From Escherichia phage Ecp_YSF, in sequence record OR327751.1: a stretch of DNA of 53,268 nucleotides; one strand, 5' to 3'. The translations under genes and the position numbers were made by a program. Position 1 is the first letter of the stretch. Each line of letters opens with the position of its first letter. Under the pieces are notes generated by a model. That model was not told the origin of the DNA and ran no database searches. It saw nothing but the letters and a program-made list of their open reading frames with translations. Positions 142 through 53,268 of this stretch are shown here, in pieces.

Positions 142-306
142 CTTTTCCCCGATGGTCCCCATAAACAAGGCTGATTCACTTGGGCGGTTCGAATCAAATT
201 TAATAAGTGTCTTGGCCGCAGTGGAAACACCATTTAAGCCAATGTTTTGTAATGTCCGTAATAGTCCACGTCAGGGCACTTACTTAAATTTTAACTGGAG
301 AGAAAC

Positions 307-3068: not shown

Positions 3069-5003
3069 GTGTTGTATCCTTGGGAAAATATGTATGCCAG
3101 TGACATTGAAACAACTGGTCTGTTGGAGCAAATGCGTAAGCAAGCTGCACCACGTCTTCACAACATCGGGTATATCGATGTTCTGACTCGTGAAGAAACT
3201 GTAATAGAGTGGACCGACAGAAAGTCTATCCAGGCATTTCTGGATACAGGCCCAACATTAATCATGCACAACGGCGCAACCTTCGACTTTGAAGCACTGA
3301 GGTTCCTTGGTTACGACGTTTCAAAATGTACACTAATTGATACTTTGTTTATCAGTTGGTATCTGCAACCTCGTCGTGTTAAGCACGGCTTAGAAGGTTA
3401 CGGCGAAGAGTTTGGTGTGCCAAAACCAGTCATTGAAGATTGGGAAAATCAAACTCAAGAAGAGTACAACCATCGTGTGATGGAAGACTGCAAGATTCAG
3501 TTGAAGCTGTGGGAACAGCAATACATTCAACTCTTAAAGATTTATAAATCTCCTGGCGAAGTTAAACGCTTCGTTGAATATCTGATGACAAAAGCTCGTC
3601 AACAGGTTATTCAGCAACGAACTCGCTGGAAGTTAAACATTGAGAAGGCACTGGCATTTAAGGCCAAGCTGGAACCAATGATTAAAGAGAAGACGGACGC
3701 ATTGGAAGCATCAATGCCGCGTGTTCCGGAATATGTTATCAAAACCCGTCCAGCTAAATGCCACAAGATGAACGGGCAACTGTCTGCCACTGGAATTAAG
3801 TGGAAGGCTATTTGTGATGCAAACGGTTTGGACTGGAAAGACCCAGACCTGGCTATAAAAGTTCTTAAAGGCTATAAGAAGCCTAATGCTGGTTCACATG
3901 TTCAAATTAAAGACTGGTTGTTCAGCCTAGGTTGGGAACCAGAAACCTTTAAGTTTGACCGTAATAAGGAAACAGGTGAAACTCGCCAGATTCCACAAAT
4001 CACTGTGAAGGATGAAGATGGCAATCCTGAAATATGTCCGAGCTTGCATAAGCTGGCGGAAAGAAACCCCGACTCTGGTATTCAACATCTTATTGGGATG
4101 GGCGTGTATAAACACCGTCTGTCTGTTGTTAATGGCTTCCTTCGCGACGTCGATGAAGATGGGTTCCTTACTGCACGATGTGGTGGCCTTACCAATACTT
4201 TACGCCTTAAACATCGCGAACTTGTTAACCTCCCTTCTATTCGTGTATTTGGCGGTGAAGAACTGCGTTCAATGTTGGAAGCGTGGCGCGAAGATTACGA
4301 ACAGTTAGGCTCTGACTTGTGCTCACTGGAAGACCGTTGTAAGCACCACTTCCAGTGGATGTATGACCCTGAATACGTTAAGAAGCAGTTGGCACCAGAC
4401 TATGATGCTCACCTTGCAATTGGCGTAATTGGCGGATTTATTACCGAACAGGAATCTCAGGACCACAAGGACGGGATTAAGAAGTGTAAACAACGTCCAA
4501 TGTTTAAGACTACAAACTATGCTTGTCAGTATGGTGCTGGTGTACCAACTGTAGCTCGTTCTGCTGGCTGTGACCAGACTACTGCTGCACGACTGCATAA
4601 AGCATATTGGGACTTGAACTGGTCTATTAAAGAGATTGCTGCCAACACCAAAGTTGTAACAATTGATGGTCAGATGTGGCAACAGAATCCAGTAAACAAA
4701 TTCTGGTATTCGTTGCGTACAGAGAAAGACCGCTTCTCCACATTGTGTCAGGGCACTGGTGCATATGTGTTTGATGTTTGGTGTAACAACATCATTGCAA
4801 TTTGTAATGAACGTTGGGGCTGTGACCCGCTTCTGTCTGGACAATTCCATGATGAATTGATTCTCCAAGTTAAGAAAGGTTTCCGTGATTTGTGGACGGA
4901 CTTGCTTAATGAAGCAATGGACCGGACCAACAAAGAACTTAAACTCAATCGTGATTGTGCATGTGATGTACAATTTGGCGATAACTACGCAGAGATTCAC
5001 TAA
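3069..5003 (+). CDS. family A DNA polymerase with 3'-5' exonuclease (T7 gp5-like)
   Basis: Exo I motif DIETTGL. Polymerase motifs DLCSLEDR (A), KTTNYACQYGAG (B) and QFHDELILQV (C). GTG 3069 has GGAG at 3057-3060. Confidence 0.9.
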   Translation: MLYPWENMYASDIETTGLLEQMRKQAAPRLHNIGYIDVLTREETVIEWTDRKSIQAFLDTGPTLIMHNGATFDFEALRFLGYDVSKCTLIDTLFISWYLQPRRVKHGLEGYGEEFGVPKPVIEDWENQTQEEYNHRVMEDCKIQLKLWEQQYIQLLKIYKSPGEVKRFVEYLMTKARQQVIQQRTRWKLNIEKALAFKAKLEPMIKEKTDALEASMPRVPEYVIKTRPAKCHKMNGQLSATGIKWKAICDANGLDWKDPDLAIKVLKGYKKPNAGSHVQIKDWLFSLGWEPETFKFDRNKETGETRQIPQITVKDEDGNPEICPSLHKLAERNPDSGIQHLIGMGVYKHRLSVVNGFLRDVDEDGFLTARCGGLTNTLRLKHRELVNLPSIRVFGGEELRSMLEAWREDYEQLGSDLCSLEDRCKHHFQWMYDPEYVKKQLAPDYDAHLAIGVIGGFITEQESQDHKDGIKKCKQRPMFKTTNYACQYGAGVPTVARSAGCDQTTAARLHKAYWDLNWSIKEIAANTKVVTIDGQMWQQNPVNKFWYSLRTEKDRFSTLCQGTGAYVFDVWCNNIIAICNERWGCDPLLSGQFHDELILQVKKGFRDLWTDLLNEAMDRTNKELKLNRDCACDVQFGDNYAEIH

Positions 5004-39367: not shown

Positions 39368-39390
39368 TTGTAACATTAGTTGGATGTGAA
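39368..39390 (+). promoter_or_regulatory. phage RNA polymerase promoter P2
   Basis: Core ATTAGTTGGATGTGAA matches at 16 of 16 positions. The hairpin AGCTGGC..GCCAGTT lies immediately upstream. Confidence 0.7.
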
Positions 39391-48348: not shown

Positions 48349-48420
48349 AGAGCTTTGTAACTAGGTAGTCCGTCTGGTACCAAGACGTGTGAGAACGTTC
48401 GATTCGTTCTACAAAGCTCT
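48349..48420 (+). ncRNA. tRNA-like RNA element TL1 (acceptor/T-arm intact, reduced D arm, non-decoding anticodon-like loop)
   Basis: 11-bp stem 48349-59/48410-20. T arm GAACG-TTCGATT-CGTTC (48393-48409). Arm CGTCT-GGTACCA-AGACG (48371-48387). Lies 14 nt downstream of P8. Confidence 0.45.
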
Positions 48421-48969
48421 TTTCGATGGAATGTTTCCATCATATACATTTATCTTTTAACATAGGCCAAAGGGCCGGAATACTTATTCGCAGAAAAGCT
48501 ATTCACTTGTTATAGGCGATGTATTGGGATGAATTAGAACTAAATAAGCAAGCTGTTAGGGCTGAATAATTAGAGGGTTGTGCCTCATGCTTATGTTAGT
48601 CATTCGAAAATAGGTTTGTGCCACAAGCTGCTGGTGCTCTGAGGAAGTCGGACAAACAGGGCTTAGAGTGGCATAATCCGCACAAAACCGCGCCACCAGC
48701 TATGCCAAAGCAGGTGGATTGGGTGAATGTATTGGGAAGGGTTGCAAAGCCTCTGCGAGCACGGTATCGCGTATAATAAGTGACGTCTGCGCTGCGTGTA
48801 TCGCACCCTAACGGGAGTAACCCTTCGCCAATGCAGTTATCCAGAATTGACACAAACGGTAGGCAGTGGCCCGATTTTCGGCCTTCCTGTGCTACCCTGT
48901 GGCCTGTTTCATGGGCCAAAAGATGAGAAGAGAAGTCACAAACCCCGAATCGAAAATTGGAGAGTTCCT

Positions 48970-50685: not shown

Positions 50686-51583
50686 GTTGCCGATGGCAAA
50701 CTTGAGAGACTAAGCTAAATCGATCTGGCATGCACTGGGAGATCTGCCAGTGCTGCCTTGAATCCCATTCCAGAGTGAGTGGGCTTCAATGAGCATTCTT
50801 GTGATTAGAGTTGGGAGGTAGGCCGATGCCCAAGCTCGTGGCCCAGACAAGAGTGTTCATTGAAGTAGTTTTCTGAGTCTTACGACGGGCCTAAACTGCC
50901 TGGAGTTATTGCGACTGTTTTATTCATTTAAAATAAATGCAAATGATTCTGAAATGCGAGTTGCGGCTTAATTAAATTTAAGTCCTCTCCGTGGTCTTCC
51001 AATCCCACGTAACCAAATTTGGCGCATTGTGGCTTCGAGATGTGATTAATAAATCGGAGCAATAATTAATTTGTATTCTGCGATGCAAAGCAGGCTTAAG
51101 TCCTCCAGTGCGCGTGGGGATGTGACAGAGTACAAACTTAATTATGCAGTTGGATATTTCTAGAGGACGGACGAGCACACTGGAATGTCTTCAATTGGTT
51201 TAGTGTGAGAAGCTATGCCAATTTGAAACGTAACTCCTTGGGGAAGTGCTCCTCTGGATTTCCCTCCACACAGGAATCTCAAGCCTGTGGCAGCGACTTC
51301 GAAGCTGCACTGCGTAACCTAATTCACCCTAAAGTGAGTTGCCCTGAGCATGGAAATAAACTGCTCTAACCGATGGTATCTACAAAGGTAGATTAAATCA
51401 GGTTGCCTGTTGGTACTTGGGTTCAACACCTGCTTGCACTCGCAAAGTAGTGCCTCGTACCTGAGATGAAGTGAGTCGGGACCATCAATCCCACGTTATG
51501 TCAAAACACAGTAGGCGACTCACAGATTCTACAAGCCTCGCAGTTCGGGAAAACCTGCGTTATCAAAACCCCCCCCTCAATTT

Positions 51584-51679
51584 GGACGAGTAGCTCAGAA
51601 GGTCTGCTCCAGAGCTTAGTCAGGTAGAGCAATCTGTTCGACAGATGTGTCGTTGGTTCGAATCCAACCTCGTCCACCA
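51584..51679 (+). tRNA. aberrant tRNA (probable anticodon UCG, Arg) with a 19-21-nt hairpin insertion in the D loop and encoded CCA
   Basis: Acceptor GGACGAG/CTCGTCC. T arm GTTGG-TTCGAAT-CCAAC. D stem GCTC/GAGC enclosing the extra hairpin 51599-51617. The anticodon arm is only 15 nt. Confidence 0.6.
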
Positions 51680-51706
51680 ACTCTCAATAATAAACATGGA
51701 GTCCTT

Positions 51707-51847
51707 ATGGACATTGATGCACTAGACAATTTGGACTTCGGTGCTGCCGAAGAAGCAATTGAAGAACTCAAGAAAAAGCAGGACGAAGAAGCAATCGTTC
51801 CTGGTGCTGGCGATAACGACTGCTCAAGTGGTGCGTGCGCCATCTAA
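51707..51847 (+). CDS. 46-aa acidic peptide with a Cys-rich end (..DCSSGACAI)
   Basis: ATG 51707 lies 5 nt after GGAG. The ORF-track start 51647 lies inside the tRNA. Confidence 0.4.
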   Translation: MDIDALDNLDFGAAEEAIEELKKKQDEEAIVPGAGDNDCSSGACAI

Positions 51848-51855
51848 GGTGATTT

Positions 51856-52092
51856 ATGCAACAGCTTAAATCAATAATTCTTGGCGTCCTGACTGCATTT
51901 GGTATTATCATTGCAGTGTTCCTCAAAGGCAAAAGCTCAGGCAAAGCCGAGGAGCGTCAGGAAGCCACAGAGAAGCAACTAGATTCATTAAAAGAATCTA
52001 TCGAGATTAAATCGCATGTTCAGAAAGAAGTGTCTAGCAGTTCTGATAGCAATGTCGATAGTGAGTTGCTCTCAAAGTGGGTTCGTAAGTGA
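51856..52092 (+). CDS. i-spanin (Rz-like)
   Basis: N-terminal TM segment IILGVLTAFGIIIAVFL followed by charged coiled-coil sequence. Confidence 0.6.
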   Translation: MQQLKSIILGVLTAFGIIIAVFLKGKSSGKAEERQEATEKQLDSLKESIEIKSHVQKEVSSSSDSNVDSELLSKWVRK

Positions 52093-52225
52093 TTATTGCT
52101 TAATTGCACAACCAATCTATTTGGATGTTGCAGAAGTGAAAATCTTATCACGCGAAACCAAAACACAGATTTTAGTCCACAATGAAACGTGGGCACAAAA
52201 GTGTTCGAAACTTACCCGACAGTGA
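52016..52225 (+). CDS. o-spanin (Rz1-like lipoprotein), overlapping the i-spanin gene in another frame
   Basis: Signal sequence plus lipobox LAVLIAMSIVSC. Confidence 0.6.
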   Translation: MFRKKCLAVLIAMSIVSCSQSGFVSDYCLIAQPIYLDVAEVKILSRETKTQILVHNETWAQKCSKLTRQ

Positions 52226-52239
52226 GTGAACATGGCCTA

Positions 52240-52255
52240 GCTAGTTGGTGGTGTA
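52240..52255 (+). promoter_or_regulatory. weak promoter-like site P11
   Basis: GCTAGTTGGTGGTGTA matches the core at 11 of 16 positions. Confidence 0.3.
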
Positions 52256-52546
52256 AAGACTGACCAAGGTGACGACAGCCAAAGTCGAGGGAGTGCGCGA
52301 CTTTAAATAACGAGACTCTAGCCACTTGTGGTATGGCAGGTGTAACTCCTGCAATTGCTCTGGGCATAACAATTAAAATTGCTGCCTCGTATTGAACGCG
52401 AGAAAGTTCAGGTGGTCACTTCCTAGAACAGTGTCCGAGAACACACTCGCCAAAGTGCTTGAGAACGTTAGCTCTGTCTTGCCAGCATTAATGGCACGTT
52501 GGCCGCGTAAAGGCCGCAACCTCAATCATATATAAGGTAGTCTTCT

Positions 52547-52747
52547 ATGGACAAAATTAGCATTCGTGCAATCATTCGTAACGCAATCATTAATAATGAG
52601 GTGCGTACATATCAGTATCAAGAAATTCAGGTAGCTCTAGGTTGTAGCCGACATAAGGCAAAGCAACTTTATTACGCATTTCTGTATAACGCAGGGGATG
52701 CATTTCTTCGCAAGAAGTTGACAGAACCTGATAGCGACCCTTGTTAA
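52547..52747 (+). CDS. hypothetical protein (66 aa)
   Basis: RBS AAGG upstream. Confidence 0.5.
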   Translation: MDKISIRAIIRNAIINNEVRTYQYQEIQVALGCSRHKAKQLYYAFLYNAGDAFLRKKLTEPDSDPC

Positions 52748-52789
52748 TCATCACAGCGTCTGGCCAACGTATCGGCCGCCAAATTCAAT

Positions 52790-52857
52790 GGGATTTTCGT
52801 ATGTACGGGCTTGACCGTGGTGAAACGACCTGACTGGTTCGATTCCAGTGAATCCCA
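52790..52857 (+). ncRNA. tRNA-like element TL2 (acceptor stem plus canonical T arm, degenerate lower half)
   Basis: GGGATTT (52790-96) pairs with GAATCCC (52850-56). T arm ACTGG-TTCGATT-CCAGT (52833-49). The middle 36 nt do not form canonical D or anticodon arms. Confidence 0.4.
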
Positions 52858-53127
52858 CGAACAATGGATTCGTAGAGTTAATTAAACCTGCACGATGGGA
52901 TAGGGATGAAGCATCCGAGGCCGACTGTGTAATTGTGAACTTATCGTTCACCGAATCCACCAAATACCCGGGAGAAAGTGCTGTGGACGATATTGTATCG
53001 TAGGTGGTCGCATTCCACCCTCCCAACTCTTACCAAACAGTTATGCCTCTGTTCAAAAGGCTCAAGAGAGCGTCTGGCATACCGTAGCGATACGGCTTAG
53101 TTGCGCTGATTGTGTTGTGCAGAAAGA

Positions 53128-53268
53128 AAGTTCAGGCTTTCGTTTGGGTTACTCCTCATCCCGAAGTTAGCTGGATTCAAAATCCAGACTATGTTCCTAT
53201 ACACATGAAATATGCAAGTCGAGGGTTCTTAATGTTCAAACATGATGCGAGCATTGAGCGGGTTTATA
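53128..53268. repeat. second copy of the 141-bp terminal sequence
   Basis: Identical to 1-141. Confidence 0.95.

Follow-up and report, generated by a model that had tools for sequence, protein, structure and literature searches.

Small stable RNAs that mature through the transfer RNA (tRNA) pathway, species 1 and 2, are encoded among the tRNA genes of phage T4. A role for phage tRNA genes in countering bacterial tRNA-cleaving immunity has recently come to light, and one report describes phage tRNA clusters as anti-defence loci that are genomically dynamic and rearranging (PMC13096335). Among the YrlA RNAs, the Y RNA-like molecules of bacteria and phages, some are cut by ribonuclease P (RNase P) and given a CCA end, and some are phage-encoded (PMC4201824). 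Bacterial RNase P, according to PMC4919913, measures a coaxial acceptor/T helix of 12 base pairs (bp) with a T loop, and in E. coli, according to PMC2190699, it can by itself separate polycistronic tRNA precursors. Genome papers on the Chaseviridae mention one RNA gene only, a 'tRNA-Arg' of 95 nucleotides (nt). Here we analyze Escherichia phage Ecp_YSF (OR327751.1), whose 53,268 bases (the window in what follows) are a complete Carltongylesvirus genome (Chaseviridae, Cleopatravirinae) of a phiEcoM-GJ1-like virulent E. coli myophage. Our subject is TL2, an element at 52790-52857 that an earlier reading of the DNA letters (the sequence-only reading) had taken for an acceptor/T-arm minihelix with a degenerate lower half.

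From comparison with related phages we conclude with high confidence that TL2 is a real member of a structured RNA family. This family is delimited here for the first time and belongs to neither the tRNA, the transfer-messenger RNA (tmRNA) nor the YrlA families; a literature search found no publication describing it or linking the Chaseviridae with tRNA-like elements. With moderate confidence, we read TL2 as an optional cassette for a tRNA-derived noncoding RNA of ~68 nt, which host enzymes would excise as a non-decoding tRNA mimic. Our proposal for what this RNA may do, above all that it may act as a decoy, carries low to moderate confidence.

Results

A model built from relatives recovers TL2

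We scanned both strands of the window for a 5-bp stem with a TTYRANN loop joined to a 7-bp acceptor. Three loci emerged (48352-417, 51583-676 and 52789-857), all on the + strand and all in noncoding islands. The scan gave six register-counts, against a mean of 0.885 in 200 shuffles (both strands), confirming that TL2 exceeds chance expectation.

A covariance model trained on the cores of the elements in phages 4HA13, Faunus, Y2 and SSEM1, all of other genera, with TL2 excluded, returned TL2 as its top match in the whole window (52789-52857; 34.8 bits; E 2.9e-8, a rough value given the short calibration; model positions 1-53 of 53). The model was also specific: over 21 Chaseviridae loci, known family members alone scored 31-37 bits (32-37 for the training members), and the next matches, at ≤21 bits, were other kinds of tRNA-like element. 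General tools gave little. ARAGORN called 0 tRNA and 0 tmRNA genes in the window, Rfam at its gathering thresholds matched nothing there, and the Rfam tRNA model (RF00005) did not match TL2 even at E<10. At that relaxed cutoff, Rfam returned a 12.5-bit partial match of the T-arm part to cyano_tmRNA (gathering score 70) and otherwise chance matches to small nucleolar RNAs. Of the covariance-model scans, which the sequence-only reading had called for, that of Rfam at gathering thresholds was silent and the one built from relatives found the element.

Core helices covary across the TL2 family

Motif searches gave counterparts of TL2 in Pantoea phage SSEM1, Erwinia phage Faunus and E. coli phage 4HA13, plus a Berlingot-type variant, alongside a homologue of ~100 nt in Erwinia phage Y2 (Table 1). 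The Y2 homologue shares the motifs UUCCGUAUGUA and UGGUGAAACGG, and its 3' half reads ACAGG-UUCGAUU-CCUGU followed by GACCAAGC-A-CCA. The acceptor stem in 4HA13 is the same as that of TL2 (GGGAUUU/GAAUCCC) and is followed by U-CCA. Queried with the 4HA13 and Y2 elements, blastn gave nothing new beyond copies of the Berlingot type. A gapped-pattern search of IMG/VR produced 64 matches, in which the family members were copies of known phages only and the rest were normal tRNAs; in the JGI metagenomes it produced 13, all of them normal tRNAs.

Parsing six family sequences with a regular expression defined a common architecture: a CAAT leader, an acceptor closed by U-G, a 4-bp YCRU/AYGR stem, five purine/U-alternating bases, a hairpin variable in length and sequence, a conserved UGGURAR, a variable segment at the anticodon-arm site, a T arm with a UUCGAUU loop, and the 3' strand of the acceptor. 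The segment at the anticodon-arm site measures 4 nt in TL2, 10 in Y2 and 24-28 in Faunus and 4HA13, and the hairpin in the D-like loop is longer and different in sequence in the relatives. Neither the T loop nor the UGGURAR loop varies across the family.

Alignment of full-length elements with MAFFT was unusable, as it put the two lineages out of register, and we tabulated pairs from equal-length cores with the variable parts removed (n = 5 distinct sequences). All 17 core pairs form in each of the five, and 10 of the pairs have changed on both sides. The observed covariation score was reached by none of 500 shuffles, and sliding the partners by 1-3 columns left 28-51% paired. The D-like stem, for example, is UCGU/ACGA in TL2, whereas Y2 and SSEM1 have CCGU/ACGG there and 4HA13 and Faunus have CCAU/AUGG, and the hairpin in the D-like loop is itself compensated, with a stem of CACUC/GAGUG in Y2 versus GUCUC/GAGAC in SSEM1. 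The check on relatives that the sequence-only reading had proposed thus came out in its favor: the core helices are conserved, with compensatory changes in homologues from four other Chaseviridae lineages.

TL2 resembles the upper half of a tRNA

When TL2 was folded alone, both the minimum free energy (MFE) structure (-23.1 kcal/mol) and the centroid equaled the comparative structure. The acceptor of GGGATTT (52790-96) and GAATCCC (52850-56), with six Watson-Crick pairs and U52796-G52850, is present where the sequence-only reading had placed its seven pairs with one G-U. So are the T arm ACTGG-TTCGATT-CCAGT, the A discriminator after the acceptor, and an intervening segment of 36 nt (52797-52832). 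An eighth acceptor pair, T52789-A52857, is possible in this phage only.

The interior is where our structure departs from the earlier one. The ACGG/CCGT hairpin (52805-08/52815-18) is real, being the short form of the variable hairpin in the D-like loop. A second proposed hairpin, GGT-GAAACG-ACC (52819-21/52828-30), can be drawn but is unsupported: its bases are taken up by the conserved UGGUGAA loop and by the 3' strand of the D-like stem. Also drawable is a competing pairing of CGTGG with CCACG (52816-20/52855-59), which is not conserved, PO103-1 and flopper having CCCCG there. The minihelix with a degenerate lower half is right in that the acceptor/T-arm half is intact and the decoding half gone, but it leaves out the 4-bp D-like stem, and the anticodon arm is not degenerate but absent, CCUG (52829-32) alone remaining. 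The central reading is supported, with its internal structure corrected.

In TL2, acceptor, D-like arm and T arm are thus predicted to meet in a three-way junction, giving the upper half and elbow of a tRNA with nothing below. The element has the acceptor and a T arm of the UUCRANY type and lacks the 5-bp anticodon stem and 7-nt loop of a cloverleaf; at the place of the D arm stand a 4-bp stem and the conserved UGGUGAA, with an extra hairpin in the loop. The GG of UGGUGAA is positioned like G18-G19 of the tRNA D loop and presumably docks on the T loop to form the elbow.

Lacking an anticodon arm, such an RNA would be unable to decode. We regard it as highly improbable that TL2 is a working compact tRNA, either decoding or aminoacylated, of the kind seen in armless mitochondrial tRNAs or chargeable minihelices. 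Its acceptor stem, T arm and D-like arm are intact and it carries discriminator A73 in this phage, but a 4-nt linker takes the place of the whole anticodon arm, neither ARAGORN nor the Rfam tRNA model detects it, and its discriminator is not constant among copies and relatives. TL2 likewise has no G3-U70, no G-1 and no long variable arm, by which AlaRS, HisRS or SerRS can charge a tRNA without reading its anticodon.

Table 1. Features of TL2 and its cassette array, and members of the TL2 family. Positions are those of the window unless a locus of another phage is given.
Feature	Coordinates	Strand	Remarks
Left anchor of array	52754-52785	+	Hairpin UGGCC-AACGUAUC-GGCCG (DNA TGGCC-AACGTATC-GGCCG), then CCA-AAUU
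CAAT linker/leader	52786-52789	+	U at -1 of predicted RNase P site
Acceptor stem 5' strand GGGAUUU	52790-52796	+	Partner 52850-56
D-like stem 5' strand UCGU	52797-52800	+	Partner 52825-28; covariation and MFE fold
Small hairpin UACGG-GCUUGA-CCGUG inserted in D-like loop	52804-52819	+	Comparison and fold
Conserved UGGUGAA segment	52818-52824	+	Family UGGURAR; invariant columns
D-like stem 3' strand ACGA	52825-52828	+	Comparison and MFE fold
CCUG linker, in place of anticodon arm and variable loop	52829-52832	+	10 to 28 nt in relatives
T arm ACUGG-UUCGAUU-CCAGU	52833-52849	+	Loop invariant in family; stem covaries (ACAGG/CCUGU in Y2)
Acceptor 3' strand GAAUCCC and discriminator A52857	52850-52857	+	Discriminator C in PO103-1 and flopper
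3' trailer CGAACAAU up to next cassette	52858-52865	+	No encoded CCA
Cassette B ('TL3')	52866-52962	+	GGAUUCG ... GUGAAC-UUAUC-GUUCAC ... CGAAUCC-A-CCA
Cassette D	52970-53035	+	Ends ...CUUA-CCA; among compared genomes only window and ST32
Right anchor of array	starts at 53036		
Family member, 4HA13	L016 8609-8718		
Family member, Faunus	L014 8255-8363		
Family member, Y2	L006 3752-3851		
Family member, SSEM1	L018 9555-9654		
Family member, Berlingot	L100 2508-2607		

TL2 is one of four cassettes combined between fixed anchors

The TL2 unit is a 76-nt indel, missing from GJ1, JL1 and most relatives. In GJ1 and JL1, ...CCAAATT runs directly into CAATGGATTCG..., and in the window ...CCAAATT is followed by CAAT-GGGATTT...GAATCCC-ACGAA and then by CAATGGATTCG.... 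Only PO103-1 and flopper carry TL2 beyond the window, their copies being identical to it save for A52857 -> C, and an exact 21-mer search of IMG/VR matched the flopper genome alone. The end of the element reads A-CGA-ACAAT in the window and C-CGA-ACAAT in PO103-1 and flopper, and CCA is encoded in Y2, SSEM1, Faunus and 4HA13. The trailer CGAACAAU looks like a mutated CCA-AACAAU linker.

We aligned nine genomes over the stretch that two conserved anchors enclose. It holds four cassettes (A, which is TL2, B, C and D) in differing combinations: A-B-D in the window, A-B in PO103-1, A-C in flopper, B-C in GJ1, Pel53 and L012, B-D in ST32, B in JL1, and C in PYps3T. Every cassette opens with GG behind a CAAT linker, and B, C and D finish with N-CCA followed by A/U-rich sequence. 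The CAAT before TL2 recurs before the next cassette (52862-65) and leads every TL2-family member in other phages. The hairpin of the left anchor is compensated in GJ1 (UGACC/GGUCA). Cassette B has an MFE z-score of -2.96, a 7-bp terminal stem, a hairpin at the T-arm position that lacks the T-loop sequence, and an encoded A-CCA. Its homologue in Y2 (L006 ~3507-3587) has a compensated terminal stem, GGAGUCG/CGACUCC, and its 5' part is the sole piece of this region that blastn found in Erwinia phages. Cassette C (GGGCTAGTG...CACGTGCCC-R-CCA) is found in GJ1, flopper, PYps3T and Pel53 and not in the window.

Since cassettes combine between fixed anchors and their junctions fall at a repeated linker, the 76-nt indel represents the presence or absence of a cassette and not a transposon footprint. 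A 76-nt indel with flanking CAATGG and a terminal 7-nt inverted repeat could also be drawn as a small mobile element, resembling a miniature inverted-repeat transposable element or a short interspersed nuclear element with a CAATGG target duplication, or as an attP-like fragment of a host tRNA. We give this very little credence: there is one copy per genome, and the supposed duplication is the standard linker before every cassette of the array. This reading is further contradicted by the presence of both acceptor strands, by the strictly virulent habit of this phage type, and by the want of a matching host tRNA. For the latter, a blastn search with TL2 matched nothing in 5,426 E. coli genomes, and the two matches that the pattern GGTTCGATTCCNGTGAATCCC had among 185,579 species genomes both lie in ordinary non-tRNA sequence, so that no donor tRNA was found.

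Rarity suggests another origin, a decaying relic of a phage tRNA-like gene, functionless and not yet deleted between its CAATGG repeats. Among roughly 30 distinct Carltongylesvirus genomes, TL2 occurs in 2 apart from the window; it is the shortest in its family, no longer encodes CCA (ACGA replaces the ACCA of relatives), and is flanked by a direct repeat, CAATGG, of the short homology type at which deletions arise. We nevertheless think a relic improbable. The 17 core pairs are all intact, two pairs of the D-like stem differ from every relative on both sides, and pairs that are intact and partly lineage-specific point to selection for the structure during the divergence of TL2. In addition, the three copies of TL2 differ at one base and their flanks at several, and the family-model score of TL2 is as high as those of full-length members.

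Genomic setting and predicted transcription

Across 50700-53268, the window is 94-97% identical to phages JL1, EcoM1, ST32, flopper and GJ1. Its first 141 bases are identical to its last 141 (53128-53268), either as the assembly overlap of a circular contig or as a terminal repeat. Because of this repetition, the noncoding stretch that holds TL2 runs on into window 142-306, up to a gene at 307-528. TL2 thus lies between an open reading frame (ORF) at 52547-52747 and, after wrap-around, gene 307-528, within one + strand unit. The upstream ORF (66 amino acids) has no Pfam family and is present in the window and JL1; in GJ1 it is missing and its flanks are contiguous. A coding reading of TL2 itself was dropped: the overlapping ORFs (30, 51 and 91 amino acids) matched no Pfam family, and the 76-nt indel, not being a multiple of three, breaks the frame.

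The phage-polymerase promoter motif AACATTAGTTGGA, annotated in GJ1, occurs exactly at 39372, 48129 and 50252, and nowhere after 50252. Sigma-70-like promoters and intrinsic terminators were at chance level in the scanned sequence, and all ORFs of this phage type are oriented alike (PMC6266442). The position of the last promoter, the background level of other promoters and of terminators, and the single gene direction together put TL1 (a tRNA-like element described below), TL2 and the remaining cassettes in a single long + strand transcript.

TL2 contains the sequence prerequisites for RNase P, namely a 12-bp coaxial acceptor/T helix, the T loop and U at -1. That the conserved features are those read by bacterial tRNA-processing enzymes suggests excision by host RNase P at 52789|52790. 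The same features would serve in cis, if TL2 were a processing or stability signal at which RNase P and 3' trimming cut the phage-polymerase transcript into structure-capped messenger RNAs (mRNAs), a form of 'tRNA punctuation'. Such a role would suit an element between ORF 52547-52747 and gene 307-528, in a + strand unit without terminators, whose conserved features are only those that RNase P needs (acceptor, T arm, elbow and U at -1). It also has a precedent in the plant mitochondrial t-elements, which are documented as signals for mRNA end formation (PMC1920247). We consider it unlikely, though the most serious of the alternatives. Different cassettes adjoin one another without an intervening ORF (A-B-D in the window; in Faunus a row of three or four, L014 7972-8363) where one site would suffice; each cassette has a conserved body of its own; and phages are viable whether this junction holds a single cassette or three. 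We favor a trans-acting accessory RNA because the cassettes are arranged in tandem without intervening ORFs, have their own conserved bodies, and vary freely in content among near-identical phages.

Other tRNA-like elements in the window and in related phages

TL1, at 51583-51679 in the window, is the homologue of the GJ1 gene annotated 'tRNA-Arg, may contain an intron'. Its cloverleaf resembles tRNA-Arg(UCG) but has a ~20-nt insertion before the D arm, flanked by GCTCAG/GCTTAG. Its anticodon loop varies (GTTCGAC in the window and GJ1, GTTAGGC in JL1, GTAAGAC in PYps16N and TH26), the remainder being identical in close relatives. The window copy was missed by ARAGORN and at Rfam gathering thresholds; the GJ1 copy scored 41.8 bits.

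A miniature tRNA-like element of 65 nt occupies 48352-48417 (GCTTTGTA...GAACG-TTCGATT-CGTTC-TACAAAGC, no encoded CCA), with a phage promoter-like motif (48317-29) ~25 nt upstream of it. Relatives show covariation in both its acceptor stem (TCTTGTA/TACAAGA) and its T stem (GAATG/CATTC). A candidate CCA-tailed element, GAAGGGT...ACCCTTC-G-CCA, lies at 48736-48830 in the first noncoding island, downstream of a weak ArdA-like gene; this upstream island lies just past that gene, which is of the anti-restriction type. The sequence AATCCCACG has four exact + strand copies (664, 51001, 51487 and 52851; ~0.4 expected on both strands), three of them inside the 2.5-kb noncoding region. We rejected it as a shared signal, the TL2 copy not being conserved in PO103-1 and flopper.

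Phages Faunus, 4HA13, Y2, SSEM1, Fifi44 and phiA050 contain several more tRNA-like elements in the same early region, with anticodon arms enlarged or truncated. A second tRNA-like gene starts 7 nt past the TL2 homologue of Y2 (L006 3859-3927; in Fifi44, L017 9727-9796). In Y2 it reaches the Rfam tRNA threshold (35.2 bits), has an anticodon arm of 3 bp with a 6-nt loop, and lies in a region annotated as the protein gene gp43. The island of Proteus phage Myduc holds a canonical 76-nt tRNA-Arg(CCU) (L020 8391-8466), and at the position of the thymidylate synthase of other members Myduc encodes a 189-amino-acid nucleotidyltransferase-like protein (L020 9368-9937; DUF6932, 30 bits; PolyA_pol head domain, 20 bits, under the cutoff of 23). 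Two phages of the Nefertitivirinae, pAh6-C (L103) and SppYZU05 (L104), have no such RNA island; in both, the homologues of gp28/gp29 lead almost directly to primase/helicase, and pAh6-C has two ordinary tRNAs elsewhere in its genome.

Discussion

The route by which TL2 might yield an RNA can be set out in steps. The starting point is the position of TL2 within the long + strand unit that follows the last phage-type promoter motif (50252). Host RNase P would cut between U52789 and G52790, and a second RNase P cut before the next cassette (52865|52866) would leave an 8-nt trailer. Host 3' exonucleases would trim this trailer, and the host CCA-adding enzyme may supply CCA, because TL2 encodes none. 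The resulting stable RNA would mimic the upper half of a tRNA and might occupy, or compete for, a host protein that recognizes the tRNA elbow or acceptor end. Given the variable and dispensable distribution of the cassette, the most plausible target would be a host factor for tRNA-directed defence or tRNA processing.

Several points weigh against this reading. The RNA product and its possible decoy role are predictions from sequence. The core alignment behind the covariation was built by hand around conserved motifs from five sequences that represent three independent lineages. Thermodynamics is weak on its own, the fold z-score of TL2 being a modest -1.49. TL2 is the shortest family member and the sole one without an encoded CCA, and its presence in only two other phages of the phage database (four records) marks it as dispensable and possibly being lost. 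Finally, the discriminator varies (the window and Y2 have A; PO103-1 and flopper, C; SSEM1, G; Faunus and 4HA13, U), which argues against a conserved aminoacylation identity.

A wider proposal, which we offer only tentatively as a possibility, is that the RNA island of the Cleopatravirinae is a combinatorial array of tRNA-processed and mostly CCA-tailed RNAs, some of which, the TL2 family, would be tRNAs that have shed their anticodon arm. It would form an exchangeable arsenal of tRNA mimics, directed against tRNA-directed host immunity or serving takeover of the host, and swapped between co-infecting phages at CCA-AAU(U)-CAAT linkers. If TL2 is what we suggest, a non-decoding tRNA look-alike in a swap-in/swap-out array would extend the idea of phage tRNAs as a counter to immunity from replacement tRNAs to decoys or scaffolds. 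It would also account for ~2.5 kb of unannotated DNA in every phiEcoM-GJ1-like genome, now filled with spurious small ORFs (Y2 gp43, for example). Phages of this type are considered as candidates for therapy and biocontrol, which gives accessory loci that change host range a practical importance.

How does TL2 compare with systems already described? It shares with a canonical tRNA (RF00005) the 7-bp acceptor, the 5-bp T stem with its UUCGAUU loop and a 4-bp D-type stem with GG in the loop, and, as with phage tRNAs, it sits in an early-region RNA gene cluster, beside a tRNA-Arg-like gene. It differs in lacking the anticodon arm and variable loop (4 nt versus about 22), the 8-9 linker and an encoded CCA, and in having an extra hairpin inside the D loop, and tRNA finders miss it. 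The tRNA-like domain of tmRNA, to which TL2 has its sole weak Rfam match, is likewise a tRNA upper half (acceptor, T arm and D-loop analogue) without an anticodon. TL2, however, is 68 nt long with no tag frame and no pseudoknots, its third pair is G3-C70 and not G3-U70, and its ends are joined by 36 nt versus ~300. The extra stable RNAs of the T4 tRNA cluster offer a further likeness, but they are not known to be related to TL2 in sequence or to form a combinatorial presence/absence array.

Like TL2, YrlA (PMC4201824) is a noncoding RNA that copies the D arm, T arm and acceptor of a tRNA. YrlA ends on the anticodon side in a stem that binds Ro60, whose gene is adjacent, whereas TL2 ends at the acceptor. 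Rfam gives TL2 no match to a Y RNA, and the annotations of the related-genome stretches examined include no Ro60 gene, the whole proteome of the window not having been scanned for TROVE. The t-elements of plant mitochondria, as PMC1920247 describes them, are tRNA-like structures inside mRNA precursors that tRNA-processing enzymes recognize; they are defined by their role in mRNA end formation, whereas the TL2 array consists of distinct tandem cassettes with no ORF between them. As a predicted tRNA mimic, TL2 is akin to the virus-encoded tRNA mimics already known.

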